The notes below the pieces were generated by a model, which made no database searches, was not told where the DNA came from, and worked only from the letters and a program-made list of their open reading frames with translations. Made by a program: the position numbers and the translations under genes. Positions 4,932-63,756 of a stretch of DNA of 64,000 nucleotides are shown in pieces. Origin of the DNA: Actinomycetes bacterium (GTDB lineage: Bacteria; Actinomycetota; Aquicultoria; UBA3085; Oleimmundimicrobiaceae); NCBI GenBank assembly GCA_030614255.1, contig JAUWKI010000001.1, positions 1,603-65,602 of the forward strand, in the 5' to 3' direction. Numbering within the stretch: the first letter of the stretch is position 1; each line of letters opens with the position of its first letter.

Positions 4932-5285
4932 ATGGGTGAAAATGAGGAGTATATTGGTCAAATAAATGTTGCCAATGATGTCATAGCTGATTTGGCGGGT
5001 TATGCTGCGCTTGAAAGTTATGGTGTTGTCGGCATGACAAGTTCCAGCCATAAGGTCGAAGTTGCCCAGCTGTTGACTCGCGATAAGCTGAAAAAGGGAA
5101 TTAGAGTTAAAATATCGGATGGCAAGGTCGAGATAGAATTGTACGTAATAATCGAGCATGGGACGAATTTAAGTGAAGTTGCTCGAAACCTCGTTGAACG
5201 TGTTAAGTATGAGGTTGAGAAATATACTGGATTTGAAGTAGCCAATGTAGAAATACACATCCAAGGTGTAAAAACGAGAAAGTGA
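4932..5285 (+). CDS. Asp23/alkaline-shock family protein (YloU-like)
   Basis: 117 aa with ANDVIADLAGYAALESYGVVGM Asp23 signature; directly precedes the DAK2 gene, the conserved yloU-yloV pair. Confidence 0.8.
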   Translation: MGENEEYIGQINVANDVIADLAGYAALESYGVVGMTSSSHKVEVAQLLTRDKLKKGIRVKISDGKVEIELYVIIEHGTNLSEVARNLVERVKYEVEKYTGFEVANVEIHIQGVKTRK

Positions 5286-5304
5286 TTTTATCAAAGGCCA
5301 TGTC

Positions 5305-6891
5305 ATGACAGAGTTAACCGCAAGCGATTTGCCAAATCTAATAAAAGCTTCTTTAAGCGCTCTTCGGAAACATGAAGAAGAGATAAATAAGCTTAATGTG
5401 TATCCGGTTCCAGACGGAGATACTGGAACAAATATGGTCTTTACCATGCAAGCTGTTTGCGATGAGTTATCGAAGTCTGAATGTGACACAACGGAAAATA
5501 TCTGCAAAATACTTACGCATGGTTCACTTATGGGTGGTCGAGGGAATTCAGGTGTAATTCTTTCCCAGATAATCAAAGGTTTTTGTGAAATTTTGTCTAC
5601 TAAGGAATTTATTGATTCAGTTTCTCTCGCGGAAGCCTTTGAGAATAGTGTGCAGGTTGCCTATAGGGCCATACGAAAACCTGTTGAAGGAACGATGCTC
5701 ACTGTTATCAAGGACGCAGCTGCAGCGGCAAAGAAATTTGATAAAGAAATTGAGCTGGATATATTTTTAGAGTATGTGTTGAGTGAGGCAAAGAAGTCTG
5801 TTATGAGAACACCAGAGCTTTTACCCGTCCTTAAGGAATCCGGAGTCGTTGACGCTGGTGGCTGGGGCCTGGTTCTTATGGGAAGCGGTGTTTTGTCTTC
5901 AATGAGAGGTGAGACAGAACATGAAGAGTTGACAGAATATAATATGCCTACTCTACAACATGTTGAGGATATTTCTCTTGAGTATCAATATTGTACTGAG
6001 TTTCTTTTAAAAAGCACGGGTATAGATATTTCAAAGTTTGAAGAACAGCTTGCACCCTTGGGAGACTCACTCTTGGTTGTCGGTTCGGAAACACTAACTC
6101 GTGTACATATACATACGAATGACCTCGGTACAGTTTTAGATTTGGCAACAAACAAGGGCTCTGTCACGGGAATAAAAATAAATAACATGCAAGAGGAGAG
6201 CGAAGAAAGAGCCGAAAAGATTGCTGAGGATACGAGCGGAATTGGACTCGTTGCTGTAGCTAATGGTGAAGGCGTTAAAAAAATACTATTAAGTTTGGGC
6301 GTCCAAAGAATTGTAAATGGTGGACAAACCATGAATCCAAGCACCGCCGATATTTTGAAAGCGGTTAAGGATGTTAACGCGGCAAAGGTCATCATTCTTC
6401 CGAACAATAAAAACGTAATCTTGGCTGCCCAGAGGGTTTCAGAATTAACAAAAAAAGAGATCGGTGTCGTTCCGACAAAGTCTATTCCCCAAGCTTTTTC
6501 GGCTCTTTTAGCTTTCGACAAGGATAACCCCCTTGCTTTAAATGTTGAAAACATGTCAAGCTTATTATTTCAAGTGAAAACCGGTGAAATAACAAAAGCA
6601 GTCAGGGATTCAAAAACCCCGATTGGCGAAGTTAAAAAAGGTGATTTCATCGGTCTCACCAATCACAAAGTAAGTGTTTCAGGAAAATCTTTTATAAAAA
6701 CGGCTACAAAGTTAATTGATAATATGCTCGATGATGAAAGCGAAGTTGTTACATTTTTGTTTGGTGAGGGGATACAGGAAAAAGATTTAGAGAAATTGTC
6801 AAAAATTATTTCAAAAGAACATTCTGACATAGAGATCGAAATTCATGAAGGAGGACAAGCTCTTTATCCATTAATAATTGGGGTTGAATAA
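5305..6891 (+). CDS. yloV: DAK2-domain fusion protein YloV
   Basis: 528 aa; DGDTGTNM DAK2 motif near the N-terminus; partnered with asp23. Confidence 0.8.
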   Translation: MTELTASDLPNLIKASLSALRKHEEEINKLNVYPVPDGDTGTNMVFTMQAVCDELSKSECDTTENICKILTHGSLMGGRGNSGVILSQIIKGFCEILSTKEFIDSVSLAEAFENSVQVAYRAIRKPVEGTMLTVIKDAAAAAKKFDKEIELDIFLEYVLSEAKKSVMRTPELLPVLKESGVVDAGGWGLVLMGSGVLSSMRGETEHEELTEYNMPTLQHVEDISLEYQYCTEFLLKSTGIDISKFEEQLAPLGDSLLVVGSETLTRVHIHTNDLGTVLDLATNKGSVTGIKINNMQEESEERAEKIAEDTSGIGLVAVANGEGVKKILLSLGVQRIVNGGQTMNPSTADILKAVKDVNAAKVIILPNNKNVILAAQRVSELTKKEIGVVPTKSIPQAFSALLAFDKDNPLALNVENMSSLLFQVKTGEITKAVRDSKTPIGEVKKGDFIGLTNHKVSVSGKSFIKTATKLIDNMLDDESEVVTFLFGEGIQEKDLEKLSKIISKEHSDIEIEIHEGGQALYPLIIGVE

Positions 6892-50114: not shown

Positions 50115-50147
50115 ACCAAGGACTCTTTTCCCTTGGTTTTTTATTTT
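50115..50147 (+). terminator. FMN-riboswitch terminator/attenuator hairpin
   Basis: aaccaagg actcttttc ccttggtt followed by ttttatttt. Confidence 0.65.
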
Positions 50148-50157
50148 GGGTGAAGCG

Positions 50158-51252
50158 ATGAAGCACTTAAAAAATAAGTATATGCAAAGAGCAATAGAGC
50201 TGGCTGAAAGAGGAAGAGGTCGAACGAGCCCGAATCCCTTAGTCGGAGCAGTTATAGTTAAAAACGATGCGATTGTTGGGGAAGGGTATCATGCTGGGGC
50301 CGGTGAGTCACACGCTGAAATAAATGCGATTAATCATGCGACTGAAATTTTAGATGATGCTACCTTATATGTAACGCTTGAACCGTGTTGCAGTTATGGA
50401 AGGACACCGCCTTGTACCCGGGCAATTATATCTTCCAAGATAAAGAAAGTTATCGTCGGATTAATCGATCCAAATTTAAAAGTTTGTGGCAAAGGGATAG
50501 ATGAACTTAAAAAAGCCCAAATCGAAGTCGAAGTTGGTGTAGATGAAAAGGAGATAACGAAACAAAACGAAGTATATATTAAGTACATTTCTACCAAAAT
50601 GCCTTTTGTGCTCACAAAGTCAGCAATTAGCTTTGATGGAAAAATAACATCTAAAGATGGTCGGCCGATGTGGATTACGGGTAAAGAGTCAAGAGAGCAT
50701 GTTCATCTGTTGAGAGATAGAAACGATGCAATTATGGTAGGAATAGGTACCGTTATAGCAGATGATCCTATGCTTACAGTACGTTTAGGCCAAAAAGAGA
50801 CCAAGAATCCGTTAAGGGTTATCGTTGATAGTAACGCGAAGCTCTCGTTGGATTCAAAGATTGTAAAAACAGCAGGTGAAGTGCCTACTCTGTTGGCGGT
50901 AACCGAGAATGCACCAGGAAAGAAAACAAAGGCCTTAATCAACAAGAAGGTTGAAGTTTTAGTATTGCCCAACGAGAGTAATGGGGTTAATTTAAAATCT
51001 CTCTTTACAGAGCTTGGTGAACGTGAAATTACAAGTGTAATCCTAGAAGGTGGTGCGCGTTTAATATCTTCTGCCTTAAGAGAAAATTTGGTAGACAAGA
51101 TGATTTTTTTTATAGCTCCAAAAGTAATTGGTGGGGATAGTTCACTCAACTTTATTGATGATAAAGAGATTTCTTTCGATTTTAATTTCGAGAAATGTAG
51201 ATTAATTGGTGGAGATTTACTAGTAGAGATCTATCCTAAACGAACAAATTGA
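50158..51252 (+). CDS. ribD: bifunctional riboflavin biosynthesis deaminase/reductase RibD
   Basis: HAEINAI and LEPCCSYGRTPPC zinc-deaminase motifs; C-terminal reductase domain; ATG 50158 (ORF-track TTG 50146 lies in the terminator T-run). Confidence 0.9.
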   Translation: MKHLKNKYMQRAIELAERGRGRTSPNPLVGAVIVKNDAIVGEGYHAGAGESHAEINAINHATEILDDATLYVTLEPCCSYGRTPPCTRAIISSKIKKVIVGLIDPNLKVCGKGIDELKKAQIEVEVGVDEKEITKQNEVYIKYISTKMPFVLTKSAISFDGKITSKDGRPMWITGKESREHVHLLRDRNDAIMVGIGTVIADDPMLTVRLGQKETKNPLRVIVDSNAKLSLDSKIVKTAGEVPTLLAVTENAPGKKTKALINKKVEVLVLPNESNGVNLKSLFTELGEREITSVILEGGARLISSALRENLVDKMIFFIAPKVIGGDSSLNFIDDKEISFDFNFEKCRLIGGDLLVEIYPKRTN

Positions 51253-51270
51253 CAGGTTATTGGTGATGAG

Positions 51271-51918
51271 ATGTTTACGGGTATCATAGAAGAACTGGGA
51301 AAAGTGCAGTCTGTTCAGAAAGGCAAAAACACTTGTTCAGTTACAATTTATGCACCTAATATATGTAAAGATATTCAAATAGGTGATTCTATCGCAGTTA
51401 ATGGAACTTGCTTAACTGTGATAGAACAACATAGCAATAATTTTAAGGCTGATATTATGCCAGAAACATTAAGGAAAACGAATCTGGGTGTCCTGAAAAA
51501 AGGAGAGATGGTCAATCTTGAAAAGGCATTAAAACTTTCTGATCAGCTAGGAGGTCATATGGTGTCCGGCCATATAGATGAGGTTGGAAAGATAGTTTCA
51601 AAGAAAAGGGAGAAAAATGCAGTTATTTTAGAGATTGAAACAAAATCACATGTTATAGAAGGTCTTATACTTAAAGGTTCAGTTGCAGTTGATGGGGTTA
51701 GTCTCACGGTAATGACAGTTTCGGAGAACTCTTTTGCTGTATCTATTATTCCACATACTGCAAAAACAACGACTTTGGGTCTCAAGAAACAGGGCAAGAT
51801 GGTAAATATCGAAACCGACTTAGTGGCAAAACACATTAAGAAGTTTTTAAGTGTCCCAAAAAAGAGTCTAACAACAGAAAAACTAGAAAGATTTGGATAT
51901 TTTGAGAAGGGAGGTTGA
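51271..51918 (+). CDS. ribE: riboflavin synthase alpha subunit
   Basis: [12 protein letters not shown]; two lumazine-binding repeats ([13 protein letters not shown] / [12 protein letters not shown]). Confidence 0.9.
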
Positions 51919-51919
51919 A

Positions 51920-53125
51920 ATGCCGTTTAGTTCAATAGAAGAGGCTTTGGGGGACATAAAAAAAGGGGAAATAGTAATTGTTTGCGATGACGAGAACAGA
52001 GAAAACGAGGGAGACTTCGTTGTTGCCGCAGAGAAAGTGACTCCTGAAACGATAAATTTTATGGCAAAAAATGGACGCGGACTCATCTGTATGCCTTGTT
52101 CTGGCAAAAGACTTGATGAACTTAAAATTCCAGTAATGATAAAGAATAATACCAGCACAAACACGACTGCTTTCACAGTTTCAATTGGCGCTAAGAATAA
52201 AATCACAACGGGAATATCTGCTCACGATAGAGCAGCCACGATTCTTGCAGTCGTTGATCGCAATACGAGTTCTTCTGATATTTCAATGCCGGGACATGTC
52301 TTTCCTCTAAGAGCAAGAGAGGGAGGGGTTCTTGAAAGAGCGGGTCACACCGAAGCAGCAGTCGACCTAGCTAGGTTAGCCGAGCTTTATCCTGCTGGAG
52401 TTATCTGTGAAATCATGAATGATGATGGAACAATGGCAAGACTTCCCCAGTTAAAAAGAGTAGCTGAGAAGTTCGACTTAAAGATGATAACAGTAATTGA
52501 TTTAATAAAATACCGACGTCTAACCGAGAAATTGGTCAAACGGGTTGTAGAGATAAACCTACCGACGAGATTTGGAAAATTTAAGGTGATAGCCCATGAA
52601 AGCTTAATAGATAATGAATGTCATATCACTTTCATGAAAGGCGAGGTTAGCGGAGAAAAAAATGTGCTTGTGAGGGTCCATTCTGAATGTCTGACCGGTG
52701 ACATCTTTCATTCACTAAGGTGCGATTGCGGTAGCCAACTAGAAGTTGCTCTTAAAAAGATTGAGGATGAAGGAGAGGGTGTGCTTCTTTATATAATTGG
52801 CCAGGAAGGCAGGGGAGTCGGGTTAATAAATAAACTAAGGGCTTATGAATTACAAGAACAAGGCAAAGATACCGTAGAGGCCAATGAACATCTTGGTTTC
52901 TCCCCAGACTTAAGGGATTATGGCATTGGAGCCCAGGTCTTGGCTGACTTGGGATTATCGACCATACGTTTAATGACAAATAATCCGACCAAAATTATAG
53001 GGCTAGAGGGTTATGGCTTGAAAATCACAGAAAGGGTTCCCCTGGAAACAGTTCCCACTAAAGAAAATATAAAATATTTAAAAACAAAAAAAGGGAAAAT
53101 GAACCATTTACTAGACAATGTTTAA
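51920..53125 (+). CDS. ribBA: bifunctional 3,4-dihydroxy-2-butanone-4-phosphate synthase / GTP cyclohydrolase II
   Basis: DHBP synthase RENEGD motif; GCH-II zinc motif [15 protein letters not shown]; likely start ATG 51920 after RBS gaagggagg. Confidence 0.9.
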
Positions 53126-53145
53126 AAAAGATAAGGAGGATTATT

Positions 53146-53610
53146 ATGAAAAATTATGAGGGAAAATTGATTGCCAAAGGCCTAAAGTTTGGAATTGTTG
53201 TAAGTCGATTCAATGAATTTCTAAGCACAAAACTCTTGGAAGGGGCCCTGGACGCATTTAAAAGACACGATGCCAGTCTTGATGACATCGAAGTTGCCTG
53301 GACCCCTGGTTCTTATGAAATTCCACTAGTAGCCAAAAAGATGGTCGATTCAGGCAATCACGATGCAGTAATTTGTCTCGGAGTGATCGTTAGAGGTGAA
53401 ACTCCGCACTTTGAATATATTGCCAGCGAAACCGCAAAGGGTATCGCCAAGATTGGATTAGATTCGGGAACTCCTGTAATATTCGGAATTATCACGTCCG
53501 ACGATCTTGAGCAAGCAATTGAGCGTGCAGGCATGAAGTCGGGCAACAAGGGCTGGCAAGCAGCTCTATCGGCAATTGAAATGGTGAATTTAATTAAAGA
53601 GCTAGGTTGA
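53146..53610 (+). CDS. ribH: 6,7-dimethyl-8-ribityllumazine synthase
   Basis: 154 aa; [10 protein letters not shown]...[11 protein letters not shown] lumazine synthase pattern. Confidence 0.9.
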
Positions 53611-53635
53611 TGCATATTGTGGGACGGTGTTAAAG

Positions 53636-53992
53636 ATGTATGTAAAAAAACCATGGGGCGAGTTTAAACAACTTGCTCTCAACCAAACGTGTTCGGTTAA
53701 GCTACTTACGATAAATCCCGGACAGGAAACAAGCCTACACTTCCATAATTTAAGAGACGATATGTGGGTAATTTTAGACAAAGGCATCAAAGTTCAAATC
53801 GGTGATAAAATTTACGACACTAAGCCCGGAGACGAATTTGTTATTCCCGCCGAAGAGAACCACCGAATTATTTCTTCAAAAAACAAAGTACGCGTTCTCG
53901 AAATCGCTTTTGGTTACACAAACGAAGAAGATACCCATCGACTAGCTGATGATTACGGGAGAAGACTGGAACAGTCTAAGAAGAATCGCTAA
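53636..53992 (+). CDS. cupin-domain protein (mannose-6-phosphate-isomerase-like small cupin)
   Basis: KKPWGEF...SLHFH...PGDEFVIPAEENHRI cupin motifs; 118 aa. Confidence 0.55.
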   Translation: MYVKKPWGEFKQLALNQTCSVKLLTINPGQETSLHFHNLRDDMWVILDKGIKVQIGDKIYDTKPGDEFVIPAEENHRIISSKNKVRVLEIAFGYTNEEDTHRLADDYGRRLEQSKKNR

Positions 53993-54057
53993 TAGAAATA
54001 AGGGCTAAGTAAACGATTTTAACGGACACATATTTTGAAAATAATGAATTAGTTTGT

Positions 54058-54086
54058 GGCCAGAAGTAACTTTTGGCCATTTTTAT
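54058..54086 (+). terminator. rho-independent terminator after the rib/cupin operon
   Basis: ggccagaag taa cttttggcc (9 bp with one G.U pair) followed by atttttat. Confidence 0.5.
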
Positions 54087-54102
54087 CGTTTTAATAAAAG
54101 GA

Positions 54103-54669
54103 ATGGTAGATGTGGAGCAGGAAAGTGACTTAAAATATATTGTTGAGAAATCGAAAAAGAACCCAGAAGCATTTATCGAGATATACGATTTGTTCTTTGA
54201 TAAAATTTACGGTTATGTCTATTACAAAGTGGGCAACACGGAAGACGCAGAGGATATAACAGAACAAGTTTTTTTGAAAGCATTGGAAGCAATCGGGAAA
54301 TTTAAATGGAAAGGGGCTTACTTTTCATCATGGCTTTTCAGAATAGCCCGCAATCAAATAATCGATCATTTCAGAAGGCAAGCAAAATCAGCCGATAGTT
54401 TAACCGATGACCAGATAAACAAGATCCCAGATAAAAAGGAAAATTTGGAAGAAATAATCGAAGCAAGATTGTCGCTGGAAAATGTAGAAAAAGCAATCTT
54501 GAGATTAACCGAGGAACAGCAAAATGTAATCATTTTAAAATTCTTAAGCGGTTTTTCTAACGCGGAAATCGCAAAGTTTTTCAACAAATCAGAAGGTGCC
54601 GTAAAAGCCCTCCAGCATAGAGCATTAAGCTCCTTAAGAAAAATTAAGGGAGAGTTATTAAATGAATAG
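54103..54669 (+). CDS. ECF (sigma-70 group 4) RNA polymerase sigma factor
   Basis: Region 2 (FIEIYDLFFDKIYGYVYYKV, TEQVFLKALEAIGKF) and region 4 HTH (LSGFSNAEIAKFFNKSEGAVKALQHRA); ATG 54103 after RBS aaaagga. Confidence 0.8.
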   Translation: MVDVEQESDLKYIVEKSKKNPEAFIEIYDLFFDKIYGYVYYKVGNTEDAEDITEQVFLKALEAIGKFKWKGAYFSSWLFRIARNQIIDHFRRQAKSADSLTDDQINKIPDKKENLEEIIEARLSLENVEKAILRLTEEQQNVIILKFLSGFSNAEIAKFFNKSEGAVKALQHRALSSLRKIKGELLNE

Positions 54670-55603
54670 GAGCTTTAACGAAATCTTGGATAATTGTATA
54701 AATTTGATTAAACATGGTGAAGAAAATGTTGATGGGTGTTTGGCCAGGTATCCTGAATACAGTGAAGAATTAAAATCGCTTCTCAATATTTTTATTGCGA
54801 CGGGAAGGGTGCCGAAGCCAAAACCATCGGCTCAGTTCAAGCATGAAACTAGAGAACGATTGTTAAAACGAGCAAAATCGATAAGAACATCTTCTTTGTC
54901 TTTGAATCAAATTAAGCGCAAAAAGTTCCTATCGTTAAAGCCAGCATTTGTTCAAATAGCCGCAATGGTCCTTATTGTTGTGCTTTTGAGCGGGGGAGCG
55001 GCTATGGCTTCAACAAATAGTTTGCCAGGAGATCTTCTTTATCCTCTTAAGATTACTACTGAGAAGGTTCAACTTTCCTTAGCTTTTACTGAGATGACAA
55101 AGGCCCGGTTGCACTTAAAGTTTGCAGAAAGGCGTTTAGAAGAGGTAAAAATTCTTACTTATGACAGAAAAGAGGTTGAACTTGCTAACATTATAAATTC
55201 TATGACGGAACATTTAAACAAAGCTATGAGCCTAGTAAACAAGATGCCAAAGGAAAGAAGAGAAGAGATGTTGCTGGAAATATCACAGTTTGTCCAACGT
55301 GAGCAGAAATCGTTGCAAGAAGCTGTAGAAAAGGCGTCAAGTGAGGATAAAAAGACCATAAAAGATACTATCGAAGCAACCAGAGAAGATGGTTCGGAAG
55401 ATGGACTGAAATATGAAAATTCAGAAACAGAAACCAAGGGAAAAGAAGAGAAGACAAAAGAGGAATTTCATGATGCCCAGGGTGGAATAGAGAATAATTC
55501 GGATGATAGTTTGAGTGATATCAACGATGCTTCCTCTGGTTCGGAGTCTCGGAACAATGAATCTGAAAGAACTGATTTTATGAAAGAATCTTTAAAGAGA
55601 TAA
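54662..55603 (+). CDS. putative single-pass transmembrane anti-sigma factor with acidic Ser/Glu/Asp-rich C-terminal tail
   Basis: Start overlaps the sigma gene stop (translational coupling); N-terminal cytoplasmic ~80 aa, one TM helix (FVQIAAMVLIVVLLSGGAAMA), extracytoplasmic coiled-coil/acidic domain. Confidence 0.55.
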   Translation: MNRSFNEILDNCINLIKHGEENVDGCLARYPEYSEELKSLLNIFIATGRVPKPKPSAQFKHETRERLLKRAKSIRTSSLSLNQIKRKKFLSLKPAFVQIAAMVLIVVLLSGGAAMASTNSLPGDLLYPLKITTEKVQLSLAFTEMTKARLHLKFAERRLEEVKILTYDRKEVELANIINSMTEHLNKAMSLVNKMPKERREEMLLEISQFVQREQKSLQEAVEKASSEDKKTIKDTIEATREDGSEDGLKYENSETETKGKEEKTKEEFHDAQGGIENNSDDSLSDINDASSGSESRNNESERTDFMKESLKR

Positions 55604-55742
55604 ATTTTATTCAAAGTAAAGTTTAATCGGATTAAAGTCGATAATTATATATGAGAACCCCCTGAGGTTGCTGGGTGAGACTCATAAAAGTTTAAATTGT
55701 AGCAGACCTTGAGACAACTCCAAAGGGTTCTCTTTTTTATAG

Positions 55743-55985
55743 TTACTTTTTATTGGTTGGCTTATCACTTGAAGAGTTGCCTGAAGAATTTGATGTAAGC
55801 GATTTTTTACTGCAAGAGTCAGTTTTATAGAAGCCGGATCCTTTGAAAATTATTCCTACTGGGTGAAAAATTTTCTTTGTTTTTCCTCCACAAAACTCAC
55901 ATTTAATTTCAGGTGTTTCGGTTATCTTGTGAATTATCTCTAAATCGACCCCACATTTTTCACATTTATAATTATAAATAGGCAT
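55743..55985 (-). CDS. FmdB-family zinc-ribbon protein
   Basis: MPIYNYKCEKCG...IKCEFCGGK paired CxxC zinc ribbon; true start ATG at 55985 (RBS aaaggag) inside the longer ORF-track ORF. Confidence 0.7.
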   Translation of the reverse strand: MPIYNYKCEKCGVDLEIIHKITETPEIKCEFCGGKTKKIFHPVGIIFKGSGFYKTDSCSKKSLTSNSSGNSSSDKPTNKK

Positions 55986-56451
55986 ATACCGCGACTCCTT
56001 TAATAAATATATAAGCCCCAAGTAACCAACAATCCAGTCTTTAAAATTCATCTCTTCCGGCACAGGGGCCTCTTTGCCAAAAAAGCAATTTGGTTACCAT
56101 GTGCTTTCTGAGACGAATAAAACCAAACTGTAAACTTCTTGGAGCTTACGTTAAATAATATCAATCAATCTAAAAAAGTCAATAACACTTTGAGTCATGT
56201 TGTTAAAATAAGGTTATATAAGGTTATAATTCAGTATTTTTGATTGTCTTAAATAAACTCCAAGATTATTTGGTACCAATGTGTCATAAGATGCTTTAAT
56301 TAACATTAATTCTAGCGATTTTTTCGTTTGCAGATGGTTTATATGATAAAATTAATCTGTAAAGTTTGTGATAAATTTAACTAGTTGTGAAGGAAAATCC
56401 TAAATTTTATAGAAATGTTCAATAGTCTGATTATGGAATAGGAGAATGTAA

Positions 56452-58473
56452 GTGAAACCCAAGAATGAATTAATAGAACAAAGAGAATTTCATGCAATTC
56501 TCTCCAGTATCGCTGATGGAGTAATATTAACAGACCGCAAAGGCAGAATTATACATATAAGCTCGCCAGCCGAGTCCATGTTGAACATTGAAGCCGATGA
56601 GATTGTGGGAAAAAGTATATCCATCTCTACTTTAATAGGAAAAGAACGTCAAACCAAGAAAGGTTTAGTTTTTTGTTGGGAAGAAAAGGATTGCAAAGAG
56701 AAAAGTTGCCCTGTCTATAAGAGAGATAACTCCCGGTGTTGGACTGTCACCGACACCTGTCCTAATAGTGTTAAACAAGGAGTTTTTAGAAAAAAGATAA
56801 GACATTGTCAAACCTGCGAGGTATTTGAGCGGAATTCAAAAATACTCGAAGAACCCGCGGTAATGCTAGTTAAGGAAGTATCAATAAGTGAGCCCCAGAA
56901 TAAGGTTTTGCAAATAAAGACCAATCCAATTGTTGACGAGGAAGGAAATTTTCTCGGTTTAGTGAGAACTCTTCATGACATTACGCTTGAGCGGGAAATG
57001 AGTGCCATGAAGGATGAGTTTGTTTCGACCGTATCACATGATTTTCGCATTCCTTTAACCTCAATAAAGGGCTACGTTGACCTCATCTTGGATGGTGAAG
57101 CTGGAGAATTTAACGAAATGCAAAAAGAGTTTTTAACAATCGTCAAACAGAACAGTGATCGACTCATCAGTTTAATTAACGATTTTTTAGATATCTCGAG
57201 AATTGAGTCTGGGAAGATGAATTTTAACATTAAACCCGAGAATTTAAAGTCACTAGTTCAAGAGGTTGTTAACACTTTTCAGAAATTTATCGATGAAAAG
57301 AAAATGGAAATCGACTTAAAATTATCAGACAAGCTGCCAAAAGTATTAGTCGATCATGACAGAATAATCCAAGTTCTCAATAACCTGGTAAGTAACGCGG
57401 TCAAATATACTCCTCCTATGGGAAAAGTTAAAGTAGCTGTCATTAAGAAAAAGAACTATATTGTCGTTTCCGTATCCGATACCGGCGTTGGAATTTCTAC
57501 CAAAGATCAAGAAAAACTGTTTACAAAATTTTATAGGGTAGATAGCTCCCTTATAAAAGAAACGGGTGGAAGTGGGTTAGGTCTATCCATATGTAAAACG
57601 ATAATTGAACGACATGGGGGGAAAATCTGGGTCAAAAGCGAAGAGAATAAGGGTAGCACGTTTAGTTTTTCCTTACCGGCATTAAAAACAGAAGTTAAAC
57701 CTCAACTAATAAAACAGGGAATGAGGATACTCGTAGTCGATGATGAACCTGATATATCGAAGCTAATTCAACTTTACCTTGAGAAAGAAGGATATTATGT
57801 ACTCAAAGCTTTCGATGGATTAAAGGCTCTTGAAATGGCCAAAAAAGAGCATCCCGACCTTATCACTCTAGATATAATGATGGGCAAAGTTGACGGATTC
57901 GAGGTTTTAAAAAAGCTTAAAGAAGATACTCACACGGCCTCTATTCCTGTAATTGTTTTGTCCGTTATTTTAGACGAAAAGAGAGGATACCGATTAGGAG
58001 CAGCCGACTATCTTCCAAAATCGGTTGACAAGAAAAAGCTTATTGAAAGTATCAACAAAATAATTGGAGAAAAGGGTCAGCCGGAAAAAGAGAAGAGAGT
58101 CTTAGTTGTTGATGATGATAGAGACATTGTAAGTTTCATTGAGTTTAACCTCAGAAAAGCAAATTTTGATGTGCTTAAAGCCTATAATGGTATCGAAGCA
58201 CTTAAAATTTTAAAAAAACAAAAACCCGATATTATCCTTCTCGATCTTAGAATGCCAGAAATGGACGGATATGAGGTGCTTGGTGCGATAAAGAAGGATA
58301 AGGGGCTATCTGGAATTCCCGTTATTATCATGACCGCTTACGATCTTGACCGCGAAAAGGCCGAAGTTTTGGATTTAGCTGTAGACAAAGTTTCAAAACC
58401 TTTTTCGATGAGAATGCTTACATCGAGAATAAAAGAGACTTTAGGAAACGACAAGGGTGAAGAAGATGGATAA
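56452..58473 (+). CDS. hybrid sensor histidine kinase: PAS - Cys-rich module - HisKA - HATPase_c - REC - REC
   Basis: H-box STVSHDFRIPLTSIKGY; N/G boxes (LVSNAVKYT, DTGVGIS, GGSGLGLSICK); two receiver domains (VVDDEPD...LDIMM; VVDDDRD...LDLRMPEMDG); GTG start after RBS ggaatagga. Confidence 0.85.
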   Translation: MKPKNELIEQREFHAILSSIADGVILTDRKGRIIHISSPAESMLNIEADEIVGKSISISTLIGKERQTKKGLVFCWEEKDCKEKSCPVYKRDNSRCWTVTDTCPNSVKQGVFRKKIRHCQTCEVFERNSKILEEPAVMLVKEVSISEPQNKVLQIKTNPIVDEEGNFLGLVRTLHDITLEREMSAMKDEFVSTVSHDFRIPLTSIKGYVDLILDGEAGEFNEMQKEFLTIVKQNSDRLISLINDFLDISRIESGKMNFNIKPENLKSLVQEVVNTFQKFIDEKKMEIDLKLSDKLPKVLVDHDRIIQVLNNLVSNAVKYTPPMGKVKVAVIKKKNYIVVSVSDTGVGISTKDQEKLFTKFYRVDSSLIKETGGSGLGLSICKTIIERHGGKIWVKSEENKGSTFSFSLPALKTEVKPQLIKQGMRILVVDDEPDISKLIQLYLEKEGYYVLKAFDGLKALEMAKKEHPDLITLDIMMGKVDGFEVLKKLKEDTHTASIPVIVLSVILDEKRGYRLGAADYLPKSVDKKKLIESINKIIGEKGQPEKEKRVLVVDDDRDIVSFIEFNLRKANFDVLKAYNGIEALKILKKQKPDIILLDLRMPEMDGYEVLGAIKKDKGLSGIPVIIMTAYDLDREKAEVLDLAVDKVSKPFSMRMLTSRIKETLGNDKGEEDG

Positions 58474-58906
58474 GACGAAAATACTAATTGTGGATGATGA
58501 TTTAAATATTTCCCGATTACTTAAGTTTAAGCTCAACAAAGAGGGCTATGATACATTAGAGGCCCACGATGGAGAAGAAGCGCTGATAAAAGCAAATTCC
58601 TTCAGACCAAACTTAATATTACTTGATATTATGATGCCCAAGATGAGTGGTTGGGAGGTTAATAAAGAGCTAAGGAAACATCCGGAACTGAGAAGAGTTC
58701 CCGTAATAATGGTAACCGCGGTGGACCGATTAGATGAGCAGCTTAAAAGTCTTAGTGAGAAAAATATTAAGGACTATATAACTAAACCTTTCAATTTTTC
58801 GGAACTAGTAAATACGGTAAAACGAGTTTTGGGTCAACAAATTAAGAACAATTCAGAGAGTAGCTTTAGTTTAGGCAAAAATAAGCAAGGAGAGCTGAAT
58901 GAGTAA
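58466..58906 (+). CDS. single-domain (CheY-like) response regulator receiver
   Basis: ILIVDDD...ILLDIMMPKMSG...TKPF receiver motifs; no output domain; start overlaps the stop of the upstream kinase. Confidence 0.8.
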   Translation: MDKTKILIVDDDLNISRLLKFKLNKEGYDTLEAHDGEEALIKANSFRPNLILLDIMMPKMSGWEVNKELRKHPELRRVPVIMVTAVDRLDEQLKSLSEKNIKDYITKPFNFSELVNTVKRVLGQQIKNNSESSFSLGKNKQGELNE

Positions 58907-60938
58907 AATTTCCCAGGACACAGCTGAAGCAATTCTCTCTAACGCAGCAGATGGATTAGTTGCTTTTGACAGAGACAATAAAATTATTTTTATAAATCCT
59001 GTGGCAGAACAATTCCTGGGGGTTAAACGAGAAAAAATTATAGGTAAACTCGTCAGCATGTGTAATTTGCTGGGGGCCAAAGAGAAAAGTCAGAGCGAAG
59101 AGTTGTTGAAATGCTGGCAATATTTTGGGTGCAATCACAAAATATGCCCGATGCACAACAAAGAAGAGCCGTGTTGCTGGCTTTGCTCAGATACTTTTTG
59201 TAATGGCACCTTTAAAGGGAGTTTTAAAAAAAAGATTGATGACTGTAAAGAGTGCGAGTTATTTAAGTTAAATGAAAAAATATTGGAAGAAACAGGAATG
59301 CCCTCCGTTAAGCAAGTAATTGCCAGAAAATCTGGTCATAGAATCTTACAAATTAAAACGAACCCGGTATTTAGTAAAAAAGATGAGTTTTTAGGGTATG
59401 TTAAATCTCTGCATGATATAACCGCTGAAAAGAAGATCGACCAGTTGAAGACAGAGTTTGTCTCAACAGTTTCACATGAACTTCGAACCCCGCTTACATC
59501 TATTAAAGGTTATGTTGATCTTCTTTTAGAGCAAGAGGCCGGTAGTATTAATCAAACGCAAAGAGAATTTCTGCGCATCGTAAAACAGAATAACGACCGT
59601 CTCGTTACTTTAATTAATGATTTGTTGGATATTTCAAAAATTGAGTCAGGTCGAGTACATTTTAAGATCAAAACACAGAATCTCACCGAAATTTTGACTG
59701 AAGTTACTGATACTTTCAAGATGCTTGCAAATCAGAAAAAACAGATTTTCAAACTTGACATTTCAAATAACTTACCTGAAATTGCAGCGGACAGGGATCG
59801 TTTATCACAAGTTGTGGCCAATCTTGTAAGTAATGCGATAAAGTATACGCCAACCGGTGGCACCATAAAGGTTAGAGCGATGCAAAAAGATTCTCGAGTT
59901 GAAGTCCGTGTTACTGATAATGGCATGGGGATATCCCAAGAAGATCAAGACAGCCTCTTTACGAAGTTTTTTCGAGTCGATAGTTCTCTTACTCGTGAGG
60001 TTGGAGGAACCGGTTTGGGTTTATCCATTTGTAAGACCATAATTGAGTTACATGGTGGAAAAATTTGGGTAGATAGTGATTTTGGCAAGGGGAGCACATT
60101 CATTTTTTCAATTCCCATTTACAAAGTTATTGAAGAGGAAAAAATGAAAAGAATTCCTCGCGATCTTCTTAAAAAAGGTTTTAAGAAAGGTAAGAAAATT
60201 CTGGTAGTGGATGATGAACCAGAAATTGCAATGCTGCTTCAGATTTATCTTGAAAAAGAAGGGTATAATGTAGTGAAAGCATTTAGCGGGGAAGAAGCGT
60301 TAGAGGTTGTGAGAGACGAAAAGCCGGATCTAATTACTTTAGATATAATGATGGACAAGATGAATGGTTTCGAAGTCCTTCAGGAATTAAAGGACAGGTC
60401 GGATATGACCAATATTCCTGTTGTTGTTCTTTCAATTGTTTCAGATGAATACAGGGGGATAAAACTTGGAGCAGTAGACTATCTCACTAAACCAATCAAT
60501 GTAGAAAAGCTCTCTAAGACGGTAGGGGATATACTTCGGTATGCCGGAACATCAAAAAAGATTTTGATTGTAGATGACGATAAGGATCTCGTGCGATTGA
60601 TTCAAGAGATACTCACTGACAAAAATTACAATACGATTGTTGCGTATAATGGGTTGGAGGGAGTAATTGCCGCAAAAAAAGAGAATCCCGACCTCATCCT
60701 CTTAGATATAAAAATGCCTGAATTGAATGGTTATGAGGTCATACGGAAGTTAAAAGGGGCAGAAGAAACCTGTAAAATACCAATCGTCGTTATGACAGCT
60801 TATGAATTTGATAAAACACAGACTGAGACACTAAGCTTAGTTGAGGAGCAAATTTTGAAACCCTTTTCGATCGATATTATAGCCACAAAAGTCAGGGAGG
60901 TTTTTGAAGGAGGTCCGACAGAAAATGTCAAAGATTAA
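58899..60938 (+). CDS. hybrid sensor histidine kinase paralog: PAS - Cys-rich module - HisKA - HATPase_c - REC - REC
   Basis: Same architecture as 56452..58473 (STVSHELRTPLTSIKGY, DNGMGIS, GGTGLGLSICK, two receivers); start overlaps the upstream RR stop. Confidence 0.85.
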   Translation: MSKISQDTAEAILSNAADGLVAFDRDNKIIFINPVAEQFLGVKREKIIGKLVSMCNLLGAKEKSQSEELLKCWQYFGCNHKICPMHNKEEPCCWLCSDTFCNGTFKGSFKKKIDDCKECELFKLNEKILEETGMPSVKQVIARKSGHRILQIKTNPVFSKKDEFLGYVKSLHDITAEKKIDQLKTEFVSTVSHELRTPLTSIKGYVDLLLEQEAGSINQTQREFLRIVKQNNDRLVTLINDLLDISKIESGRVHFKIKTQNLTEILTEVTDTFKMLANQKKQIFKLDISNNLPEIAADRDRLSQVVANLVSNAIKYTPTGGTIKVRAMQKDSRVEVRVTDNGMGISQEDQDSLFTKFFRVDSSLTREVGGTGLGLSICKTIIELHGGKIWVDSDFGKGSTFIFSIPIYKVIEEEKMKRIPRDLLKKGFKKGKKILVVDDEPEIAMLLQIYLEKEGYNVVKAFSGEEALEVVRDEKPDLITLDIMMDKMNGFEVLQELKDRSDMTNIPVVVLSIVSDEYRGIKLGAVDYLTKPINVEKLSKTVGDILRYAGTSKKILIVDDDKDLVRLIQEILTDKNYNTIVAYNGLEGVIAAKKENPDLILLDIKMPELNGYEVIRKLKGAEETCKIPIVVMTAYEFDKTQTETLSLVEEQILKPFSIDIIATKVREVFEGGPTENVKD

Positions 60939-61317
60939 AATTTTGGTTGCCGATGATGAGCCCGATATTTCCAAATTGATACAGTTTACCTTAGAGAGAA
61001 GAGGACATGAGATTATTTTGGCCGAAAATGGGCAAGATGCGTTGGATCTAGCAAAAAAAGAGTGCCCTGATTTGATTTTGCTTGACGTAATAATGCCGAT
61101 TATTAACGGATACGAAGTGTGTAAACTGTTAAGAGAAGACCCTAAAACAAAAAACATTCCAATAATTATGTTGTCGGGAAAAACGCAGAAAACAGAGATA
61201 GAGCACGGTATAGAGCTTGGAGCACATAGCTATATTTGTAAGCCGTTTAGCCCAAAGGAGTTCGCGGATACGGTTGAAAATATTTTAAACAAAGAAAAAA
61301 GACCTTTGGCCGAATGA
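60925..61317 (+). CDS. single-domain (CheY-like) response regulator receiver
   Basis: KILVADDEPD...ILLDVIMPIINGYE...CKPF receiver motifs; overlaps the HK2 stop; no output domain. Confidence 0.8.
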   Translation: MSKIKILVADDEPDISKLIQFTLERRGHEIILAENGQDALDLAKKECPDLILLDVIMPIINGYEVCKLLREDPKTKNIPIIMLSGKTQKTEIEHGIELGAHSYICKPFSPKEFADTVENILNKEKRPLAE

Positions 61318-61344
61318 GCCAATTCACGATAAGCATTTAAAAAA

Positions 61345-61377
61345 AACAGCTCCCTATAAAAGAGCTGTTTTTTTTAA
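61345..61377 (+). terminator. rho-independent terminator ending the HK-RR-HK-RR operon
   Basis: aacagctc cctataaaa gagctgtt hairpin followed by tttttttt. Confidence 0.6.
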
Positions 61378-61427
61378 AAAGTAGGGTTTTTTTAGTATTA
61401 ATTGAATATAAATAACTTAATGTTATT

Positions 61428-61961
61428 TTGATAAGAAAGAACGACTGGGAAAGCAAAGAAAGTAATCGATCGACGAAAGAAATAATTAACATTCAGAGGA
61501 AACCGGAAATGATTAAAGACTGGATAGAAGTGTTGAGAAAAAATTTCACACGGATATTTCCATGGATTTTATTGGTAGTTGCTATAATTGTCACCTCATC
61601 TATAGTAATTAATTCATCCAGAGAGGATTCGAAAAACGCTCGAGAAATCGAGACTAAGATAGATGAAAAAGTGGTAGCTGAAGAAAATGTCGAGACAAGC
61701 GTTGATTCAACCAAAGAAACATCGCTTTCTGAAAACAAGACTGAAGACCAAAAGTATGTAGGTAAAATAAGAGTTCTTATAAATGGTTTAAATTTACGAG
61801 ATGCACCATCTGGGAACTCAAGTGTCATAAAACAACTCAAGCGAGATGACATCTTGTTTATAATTTCCGAAGAGAATGGATGGTATAAAGTAACCGACGA
61901 AAAAGAGACAGAGGGCTATGTGACATCCGGCTCTCAATATGTCGAACTAATTCAGGAATAA
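61428..61961 (+). CDS. membrane-anchored SH3b-domain protein
   Basis: One TM helix (IFPWILLVVAIIVTSSIVI); C-terminal bacterial SH3-like motif (LNLRDAPSGNSSVI...GWYKV...GYV). Confidence 0.55.
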   Translation: MIRKNDWESKESNRSTKEIINIQRKPEMIKDWIEVLRKNFTRIFPWILLVVAIIVTSSIVINSSREDSKNAREIETKIDEKVVAEENVETSVDSTKETSLSENKTEDQKYVGKIRVLINGLNLRDAPSGNSSVIKQLKRDDILFIISEENGWYKVTDEKETEGYVTSGSQYVELIQE

Positions 61962-61965
61962 GCAT

Positions 61966-62292
61966 ATGAAGTCATTTGGCAAGGCGAGTGAGTTTTATAG
62001 GGTTAAACTGGTAGCGCTTACCGAAAATCAACCTGAGGAATTTGACTGGAAAGACGATATTCTTTATAGAAATCAGCCAGATAGGTTTGACGTAGTTAAC
62101 AAGACAGAACATATGATTATTATAGTGGATATCGATACGGGCGAGAACTTTTATGTAAGGCCTTATAGCTCCAGGCCGAAAGCTCAAAAAAAATTCGACA
62201 TCATAGAAAAAAACTTAAAAGAATTAACTAAAATTCAATTTGATAAGAGATATCGTGCTCATAAAGAAGAACCGTTTGATCCTCATTCATAG
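61966..62292 (+). CDS. hypothetical protein
   Basis: 108-aa ORF 5 nt after the SH3b gene stop; no recognisable motif. Confidence 0.45.
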   Translation: MKSFGKASEFYRVKLVALTENQPEEFDWKDDILYRNQPDRFDVVNKTEHMIIIVDIDTGENFYVRPYSSRPKAQKKFDIIEKNLKELTKIQFDKRYRAHKEEPFDPHS

Positions 62293-62703
62293 TGTGGAAA
62301 TTAAGAATATAAAAAATAAATAATGGGATAATAGTTTAGTTTACATAAGATATATTATCAAGCCCAAAATATTTAGATTGTATTTATATATTTCTCTCCC
62401 ATTAATCGCCCTCCTTTTACTTGATGACCCTTATTTCCCTTGTCTTATATTGGAAAGATTAGAAAACAGATATTTTTTTGTCATCAGGGTAATTATGGCC
62501 TTCAAAAATTTCTTGATAAGCATTAATCCTGGTCTGAAATCTCTAAAAATTAGCTTAAAAAGAAAAAACTCTTGCAGAAAACTCATTTTAACCTCATCTA
62601 GGTGGTCAAATGTTCTGAGAGCCCATATAAGCAACTTTTTTTAACAGCAAGTGGTTTTATATACCAAACATAGCTGATTTATTAAATAAGTTTGATTGAA
62701 ACA

Positions 62704-63756
62704 CTAAATAAGTGATTGCAGAGCTTCCAGTTGCTCTTTGGTCCCGATAACTATTAACACATCATCCTCAAGTATTTTCATTGAGGCCGAGGGATTTGTA
62801 TTATATGTTCCACTTCGCTTTATTGCTAAAATGAGGGCTCCGGTTTTACTTCTAATGTCTGCGTCTCCGAGAGTTGTATCTAATATTTTTGAATTTTGCT
62901 TTATCTTTAGTTCTTCTAACTGAAATTCCAGATCCTCACCATGGGTAACTATGTCCAAATAATCACAAGCTATCGGCTTAATCACTAGGGCTGCCATTCT
63001 TCTGCCACCAATTACGGCGGGAGATATTACCCTATCTGCTCCTGCTTTCTTTAATTTTTCCTTTGATTCCCCAGAATTTGCTCGAGCAACAATGAAAATC
63101 TCTGGATTGAGAGTTTTTGCAGATAATACAACGAAAATGTTGTCAGCATCTGTGTTAACCGCTGAAATTAAACCTTTAGCTTTAGTGATGCCAGCCAACT
63201 CCAATATCCTGTCATTTGTGGCATCACCTTCTACAAAAAACAGACTTTCCTCATCAAACCTGGCAATGATTTCAGGATCGTTTTCCACAATAACGAAAGG
63301 AGCTTTTGTTTTCTTGAATTCTTTGGCAACTTGACGGCCAACTCTTCCATAACCGCAGATGATATAATGTTTTTTTAAACCATCAATTTTCTTCCTCATT
63401 CTTCTCTCCCCCACTATCCCTTTAAGATGACCTTCAACTAAAAATTCAATAATGATACCCAACGCATATATTCCTGTTCCAACCCCACCGATTATCAAAC
63501 ACATGGTAAAAATTTTCCCAGTTGGAGAAAGCGCTCCGACTTCGCCAAATCCAACCGTCGAAATCGTAATAACTGTCATATAGAGGGATTCCAATACCGA
63601 CCATTCCTCTATTAACCTATAACCGATAACACCGGATATTAAGACTATAGAAAAAATAACTAAGGCTGACCTTAGTCTGGAGAGTATATTTAAATTATCG
63701 CTATACTTAAATTCCCGTACTCCCAAACCCGCTGCTTCCCCTCGATGTGTTATCAA
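62704..63756 (-). CDS. MthK/TrkA-like potassium channel (2TM pore + RCK_N + RCK_C); true start probably downstream of the ORF-track TTG
   Basis: Selectivity filter TISTVGFGEV between two TM helices; Rossmann GYGRVGRQVAKEF (RCK_N) and C-terminal RCK_C; the first ~17 codons overlap dut in another frame. Confidence 0.8.
   Translation of the reverse strand: MITHRGEAAGLGVREFKYSDNLNILSRLRSALVIFSIVLISGVIGYRLIEEWSVLESLYMTVITISTVGFGEVGALSPTGKIFTMCLIIGGVGTGIYALGIIIEFLVEGHLKGIVGERRMRKKIDGLKKHYIICGYGRVGRQVAKEFKKTKAPFVIVENDPEIIARFDEESLFFVEGDATNDRILELAGITKAKGLISAVNTDADNIFVVLSAKTLNPEIFIVARANSGESKEKLKKAGADRVISPAVIGGRRMAALVIKPIACDYLDIVTHGEDLEFQLEELKIKQNSKILDTTLGDADIRSKTGALILAIKRSGTYNTNPSASMKILEDDVLIVIGTKEQLEALQSLI

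Follow-up and report, generated by a model that had tools for sequence, protein, structure and literature searches.

A divergent two-CW domain nested within the PAS domain of two paralogous hybrid histidine kinases from an Actinomycetes bacterium

Two hybrid histidine kinases and their Cys-rich module

The DNA described here is a stretch of 64,000 nucleotides (the window) from an Actinomycetes bacterium (GenBank assembly GCA_030614255.1, contig JAUWKI010000001.1, positions 1,603 to 65,602 of the forward strand), and it encodes two paralogous hybrid histidine kinases, named HK1 and HK2, which carry a small Cys-rich module in their sensor regions. HK1 (56452..58473, + strand) is a soluble protein of 673 aa, for which the open reading frame (ORF) and the Pfam domains give the architecture PAS (with the Cys-rich, two-CW module nested in it)-HisKA-HATPase_c-REC-REC. 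A full-length search showed that a 673-aa protein identical to HK1 is present in a public protein collection. The transmitter and receivers of HK1, as delimited by Pfam, occupy 57007..58431 (+) and comprise HisKA (residues 186-254), HATPase_c (301-410), and two REC domains (426-534 and about 551-660). The H-box is present with the sequence VSTVSHDFR, and the ORF translation and Pfam indicate that the H-box, HATPase, and REC domains of the kinase are intact. HK2 (58899..60938, +; 679 aa), which was assigned from the same types of evidence, has an identical architecture; it too has its protein in the public collection, and this is 48% identical to HK1. Hydropathy analysis shows no transmembrane segment in either kinase, and Pfam shows neither a HAMP domain nor an extracellular part.

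Each kinase gene is followed by a gene for a single-domain response regulator that consists of REC only. The first of these (58457..58906, +) overlaps both the HK1 stop and the HK2 start, and the second is located at 60904..61317 (+); its start may instead be an internal ATG about 21 nt downstream. Overlaps are found at all junctions of the HK1-REC-HK2-REC cluster (58457/58473, 58899/58906, and 60904/60938), which suggests translational coupling. No DNA-binding response regulator is encoded in this cluster.

The Cys-rich segment of HK1 was originally noted as residues 75-125 (56674-56826, +), and that of HK2 at 59112-59264; the two peptides quoted in the initial annotation translate exactly from these positions. 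HK1 contains 8 Cys in all, 7 of which fall within residues 75-122 (48 residues), and HK2 contains 12, with 9 of them within residues 72-119. Given the Cys frequency of 1.46% in the long ORFs of the window, the probability of finding at least seven Cys in 48 aa is 6e-6, and the clustering is real in both kinases.

Identity, nesting, and conservation of the two-CW domain

The module belongs by sequence to a family that has already been catalogued as NCBIfam NF045718, 'two-CW domain'. In HK1, it was delimited by translation, the NF045718 match, and an AlphaFold2 (AF2) model to residues 75-131 (56674..56844, +), with Cys at 75, 81, 86, 96, 103, 119, and 122. In HK2, translation and the NF045718 match place it at residues 72-128 (59112..59282, +), with Cys at 72, 78, 83, 92, 93, 96, 101, 116, and 119. 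The HK1 segment matches NF045718 with an E value of 1.6e-7 and 31.6 bits over profile positions 3-78 of 80, and the HK2 segment with an E value of 6.9e-8 and 32.8 bits over positions 2-78 of 80. When the module is scored in the longer sensor regions of 186 aa and 183 aa, the values are 28.9 and 28.6 bits, respectively; since the scores stay below 35 bits, the NCBI pipeline would not label the window copies. Both CW motifs are in place (C75-W76 and C96-W97 in HK1; C72-W73 and C93-W94 in HK2), and so are the other Cys of the skeleton. The earlier view that the segment is not a named domain therefore needs to be corrected, as NF045718 matches both copies, though under its cut-off.

The relationship was also found in the reverse direction. 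A profile of the window subfamily, scored against 1.84 billion representative proteins (clusters at 50% identity), retrieves 1,621 of them at E<=1e-3, of which 521 reach E<=1e-10. NF045718 in turn matches 46 of the 48 subfamily domains, and among 53 aligned domains (51 retrieved ones and the two window copies), 37 match it with an E value of 1.5e-8 or lower, close to the cut-off level, and 2.2e-14 is the best value. The consensus of the retrieved family reads CWE-x3-C-x4-CPAY-x5-RCW-x3-GT-x-C-x4-QG-x-F-x2-K-x3-C-x2-C-x-VF. Seven Cys positions show a conservation of at least 96% each across the wider family, and the fifth Cys is the sole one ever lost from complete copies. The window copies and NF045718 have in common the skeleton CW-x4-C-x4-CP-x8-CW-x3-GT-x-C ... 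K-x3-C-x2-C. However, the window copies fall short of the 80 positions of the model by about 20, have D for G in the GT motif, and are nested in a PAS domain, whereas about half of the family copies are free N-terminal modules. The profile match combined with the reciprocal retrieval indicates that the window copies are divergent, slightly shortened members of NF045718. On sequence grounds, and with the caveat of the scores below the cut-off, we can conclude that the module is a new member, divergent and nested in PAS, of a family that is catalogued but functionally uncharacterised, and not a new kind of domain. Nor is it peculiar to these kinases, as had been supposed, because the clusters at 50% identity that contain it number at least 1,621.

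No Pfam model matches either segment, and the eukaryotic zf-CW domain was rejected as a candidate on account of the absence of a Pfam match. The profile searches likewise returned no match to a characterised domain with a non-sensory function, which leaves the initial annotation intact on this point. With the sensor region of 186 aa as the query, a word-indexed homology search gave no matches, and a search of the same type with a broad two-CW domain alignment gave only 4 short proteins. No paper on the two-CW domain or NF045718 was found in the literature library that was searched. Pfam DUF2769, which represents small Cys-rich proteins, weakly matches 4 of the 53 two-CW sequences (best E value, 0.03), which hints at a remote link. 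The two may share a CP[AS]Y-type motif, but the matches are not significant, none of them involves the window copies, and DUF2769 is itself uncharacterised.

The module had been described as an insert between the PAS domain and HisKA. Its actual position is inside the PAS domain, after the E-alpha helix and before the G-beta strand, as seen with PDB entry 4mn5, Pfam, the NblS profile, and AF2. The N-terminal half of the HK1 PAS domain covers residues 8-62 (A-beta, B-beta, and C/D/E-alpha; 56473..56637, +), on the basis of Pfam PAS, the alignment with WalK 4mn5, and AF2. The C-terminal half covers residues 136-182 (G-, H-, and I-beta; 56857..56997, +), according to AF2, 4mn5, and weak Pfam matches, and is followed by the linker helix to DHp. 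The PAS domain of Staphylococcus aureus WalK (4mn5) aligns in two pieces, one to HK1 residues 7-56 and the other, 4mn5 residues 85-124, to HK1 residues 144-183; between them lie about 24 residues in WalK versus about 87 in HK1. Pfam PAS covers only HK1 residues 12-65 (profile positions 2-55 of 113), and weak C-terminal matches to Pfam PAS_7 and PAS_10 are found at residues 141-182. Moreover, the NblS profile spans HK1 residues 9-183 while using only 121 profile positions.

The same arrangement is predicted by the AF2 model of HK1 residues 1-186, which was built from a 43-sequence alignment (pLDDT 91, pTM 0.83). In the model, the N-terminal PAS half contains strands 23-27 (A-beta) and 32-36 (B-beta) and helices 38-44, 48-51, and 58-61, and the C-terminal half contains strands 139-145, 151-161, and 167-176 (G-, H-, and I-beta), after which comes the linker helix (178-185). 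The five-stranded antiparallel sheet and the order A-beta, B-beta, C/D/E-alpha, and G/H/I-beta of a PAS domain are found in HK1. The domain is not a contiguous one of 100-120 residues; an insertion of about 65-70 residues lies between residues 62 and 136. The module occupies about residues 62-131 of the model, between helix 58-61 and strand 139-145, with pLDDT of about 87-94 over the two-CW stretch. Its fold is confidently predicted to be poor in regular secondary structure, with short helices only (75-78, 112-119, and 123-131). Such scarce secondary structure is typical of metal-stabilised mini-domains. In comparisons of fold and sequence, the module matches no known zinc ribbon, treble clef, knuckle, or ferredoxin-type iron-sulfur (Fe-S) fold. 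With a length of about 55 residues, the two-CW domain forms a self-contained module that resides in the cytoplasm, and it has no solved structural relative.

The conservation of the module was examined in homologous kinases. A full-length HK1 search gave thousands of kinases, and 115 of the best 120 carry the Cys-rich segment, located about 115 residues upstream of the H-box. In this set, which reaches down to about 42% identity, seven residues are invariant in 115/115 kinases, namely C75, C81, C86, C96, W97, C119, and C122 in HK1 numbering, and R95, T102, K115, P87, and N128 are near-invariant. The claim of a discrete, conserved Cys-rich module, which had been made dependent on the Cys positions being held in orthologues, is borne out in all 115 kinases. 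The conserved skeleton with seven or more Cys had been drawn too strictly: the Cys-rich skeleton is there, but only six Cys are invariant, the seventh is variable, and the first Trp (W76) is kept in only 78/115 kinases. In raw counts, the seventh Cys follows the GT motif (C103/104) in 66/115 kinases and precedes it (position 100) in 26/115, and it is present on both flanks in only one of the 115, which is HK2. This largely either/or placement is as expected of a ligand that reaches a common centre from either flank. Among the 48 subfamily members that lack a Cys after the GT motif, 38 have an acidic residue there (T-x2-4-[DE]-G). In HK2, C92 and C93 form a CCW doublet and, with C96 and C101 flanking the GT-equivalent motif, bring the number of Cys in the module to nine. 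The closest named relatives are found in Candidatus Oleimmundimicrobium (79% identity), Ca. Subteraquimicrobiales, Coriobacteriia, and metagenome-assembled genomes (MAGs) of other Actinomycetota.

Across the wider family, the domain is associated exclusively with signalling proteins. Its partner domains in 110 representatives include PAS (40), HisKA/HATPase (33), GGDEF (17), GAF (16), HAMP (13), and HD-GYP (7), in addition to REC, STAS, sigma-54 activator, MCP, and CheW domains. Of 158 copies, 72 start within the first 30 residues of the protein, 77 are internal, and 9 are C-terminal, and ten proteins contain two or three copies. At least 8 other copies (possibly 17), including those of HD-GYP/GAF proteins, are flanked by PAS halves, showing that PAS nesting recurs, though in a minority of cases. 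In a crude hydropathy analysis, 99 of 147 family proteins have no hydrophobic segment and 136/147 have either none or two before the domain; the latter count points to a cytoplasmic placement of the domain, where clustered Cys are likelier to be metal ligands than to form disulfides. In addition, a scan of 185,579 species genomes with a degenerate, back-translated two-CW DNA pattern gave a single locus. Since 126 of the 147 representative proteins contain this motif when it is applied to protein sequences, the DNA scan is uninformative on the taxonomic spread of the family. The single locus reflects either poor handling of long N-rich patterns or a rarity of the family outside metagenomes.

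Proposed sensory role and competing explanations

The occurrence of the two-CW domain only in signalling proteins, at input positions, makes a sensory role linked to a metal or redox state the most reasonable reading, and we consider it probable that the module serves as a metal-cofactor sensory input to the kinase. The six invariant Cys and the seventh, 'mobile' Cys near the GT motif would ligate the cofactor, and a change in the latter, such as its oxidation, its loss, or the binding of a ligand, would be the input event. This change would reach the DHp/CA core by way of the PAS beta-sheet and C-terminal linker helix, and would there set the level of autophosphorylation as well as that of phosphotransfer to the REC domains, both fused and stand-alone. 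As the cofactor, an Fe-S cluster is slightly favoured over Zn(Cys)n because of the CP motif, the odd number of conserved Cys, the acidic residue found where the Cys after the GT motif is missing, and the anaerobic setting. The previous proposal of redox- or metal-sensing kinases of a novel type is accordingly retained in part: a sensory role of this kind is plausible in view of the signalling-only relatives and their input positions, but the domain belongs to a family that is already catalogued.

Comparison with known sensor systems helps to define what is distinctive in HK1 and HK2. NreB is a staphylococcal cytoplasmic oxygen-sensing kinase with a PAS-[4Fe-4S] arrangement, in which the four ligating Cys are in the PAS domain itself (CxxC...CxxC type). 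It resembles HK1 in being a soluble kinase with a PAS-associated Cys cluster as the presumed input, and it may be regarded as a plausible functional analogue, in which loss or oxidation of the cofactor alters the kinase activity. The PAS halves of HK1, in contrast, are devoid of Cys, and its six to seven Cys are in a separate inserted module with the spacing C-x5-C-x4-C-x9-C-x6-C-x15-C-x2-C. An NreB-type PAS cluster was rejected for HK1 for this reason, since the PAS core is Cys-free, and no NreB-type family is among the NCBIfam matches to the sensor regions of HK1 and HK2. The distinction from NreB drawn in the initial annotation thus holds, in the lack of PAS-core Cys as well as in the number and spacing of the Cys. 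Two other types of Cys motif were also dismissed: haem c attachment, because the motif is CxxC[E/D] and not CxxCH, and a ferredoxin-type site, because the CxxCxxCxxxCP motif is absent. The transmitter core of HK1 and HK2 is WalK-like in sequence, with scores of 304 and 317 bits against the WalK/VicK families (NF033092 and NF033093) that are far below the equivalog cut-off of 725 bits. Unlike WalK/VicK (PDB codes: 4mn5 and 4i5s), the two kinases have no transmembrane, extracellular, and HAMP parts, and they possess two additional C-terminal REC domains.

The location of the module within the PAS fold is also relevant to its possible function. In haem, flavin, and LOV sensors, F-alpha and the contacts to the cofactor are located in the segment from E-alpha to G-beta. 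HK1 and HK2 differ from the cofactor-binding PAS domains (haem in FixL and DosP; flavin in LOV and NifL) in that they have no motif for an organic cofactor and carry a whole Cys-rich mini-domain in place of a short helical segment. This leads to a more specific and more tentative proposal, in which the two-CW domain might represent an unrecognised class of Fe-S sensor (or a cluster with an adjacent redox-active Cys) with a new fold, widespread in the signalling proteins of anaerobes and grafted here into the PAS cofactor site. If this were true, an inorganic cluster would take the role that haem or flavin has in classical PAS sensors, and HK1 and HK2 would be sensors of redox state, O2, or nitric oxide of a new mechanistic type.

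The module could alternatively be a structural zinc mini-domain, for example Zn(Cys)4 with a second site, whose role lies in PAS stability, dimerisation, or the binding of a partner, while the signal is read elsewhere, such as by the REC domains, two of which are available in each kinase to receive the input. The invariant Cys, the small size, and the little secondary structure of the module are all consistent with such a site, as is the CxxC pair at a helix start, which is also found in many zinc knuckles. PAS-cyt of S. aureus WalK, the closest PAS relative by sequence, reportedly binds zinc, which counts in favour of this explanation as well. We nevertheless regard structural zinc as rather unlikely, because the restriction of the domain to signalling proteins, typically as the N-terminal-most input module and sometimes in two to three copies, is a pattern typical of sensor domains, because neither its sequence nor its fold matches a zinc ribbon, treble clef, or knuckle, and because a count of seven conserved Cys, being odd, fits plain Zn(Cys)4 sites poorly. 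A metal-free thiol/disulfide (or persulfide) switch, in which reversible Cys oxidation alters the conformation and hence the kinase output, could draw on the many conserved and closely spaced Cys, including the CxxC pair, and on the cytoplasmic location, which would keep the thiols reduced at rest. Such a switch is nonetheless improbable: six to seven Cys far exceed the one or two pairs required, a module with so scant a predicted secondary structure would be hard to stabilise without a metal, and a seventh Cys that swaps from one flank of the GT motif to the other behaves more like a ligand than like a specific disulfide partner. A lineage-specific neutral insertion or an accident of composition, for which the tolerance of PAS loops to insertions is the sole argument, is excluded by the conservation data and has virtually no chance of being correct, given the Cys density calculated above, the invariance of six Cys and one Trp in the whole set of homologues, and the recurrence of the module in the representative clusters within many architectures.

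Several points weigh against the reading of the module as a metal-cofactor sensor. The Cys spacing shows no canonical Fe-S or zinc-finger signature, and there is no match to Pfam Fer4 or zinc-finger models. The seventh Cys is at neither position in 22/115 kinases, and the counts on which its exclusivity is based carry no correction for phylogeny. The excised HK1 and HK2 segments score below the curated NF045718 cut-off of 35 bits. Moreover, the named members of the clusters are a handful, all of them MAGs (Nitrospirae, Deltaproteobacteria, Thermoleophilia, and Actinomycetota), and are too few to restrict the family to anaerobes. Lastly, that the module binds a metal, which metal this would be, what is sensed, and in which direction the kinase would be regulated are inferred rather than computed.

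The two kinases are also of practical value. The two-CW family, which feeds histidine kinases, cyclic di-GMP enzymes, sigma-54 activators, and chemotaxis proteins, is large and has neither a Pfam entry nor a solved structure. In HK1 and HK2, the module is built rigidly into a PAS-DHp transmitter whose workings are well understood, and the construct is both compact and soluble, which makes the two kinases convenient for de-orphaning the family. An Fe-S cofactor, if confirmed, would add a new type of input to the PAS repertoire and aid the annotation of signalling in Actinomycetota, Nitrospirota, and Deltaproteobacteria that are anaerobic and poorly known, whereas a merely structural zinc site would be a routine result.

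Genomic surroundings and a fused relative

The gene order around the kinases, at 50146-63756 of the window, is riboflavin biosynthesis genes, an extracytoplasmic function (ECF) sigma factor, a DUF5667 protein, an FmdB-type zinc ribbon on the minus strand, HK1, REC, HK2, and REC, after which come an SH3-domain protein, a small ORF, and a TrkA-type K+ channel on the minus strand. The same gene order is kept in Ca. Oleimmundimicrobium, where genes for dUTPase, NrdG, thioredoxin, and NrdD come next, and it is partly kept at a distant, 50%-identical locus of Actinobacteria. The conserved neighbourhood in the relatives includes the NrdD/NrdG genes, and a ribonucleotide reductase of class III points to an anaerobic lifestyle. 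The small FmdB-family zinc-ribbon protein (55743-56063, -; Pfam Zn_ribbon_8, E value of 8e-13) is encoded divergently and directly upstream of HK1, and its position is also kept in the Oleimmundimicrobium relative.

A further member of the two-CW family was observed on contig CAWJHN010000003.1 of an Actinomycetes MAG (4945-5294, -), which encodes a fusion of an XRE-type helix-turn-helix with a two-CW domain (CWLINKCPMKTRKECPAW ... CWFINGTICQGQPQKSWRKKMDICKSCEVL). The ORF of this fusion is broken by an apparent frameshift, which may be an assembly error. It adjoins multihaem cytochrome-like ORFs, a Rex-like gene (5733-6425), and a NuoE-like gene (6418-6891), and the fusion may represent a one-component form of the sensor that belongs to a redox context.

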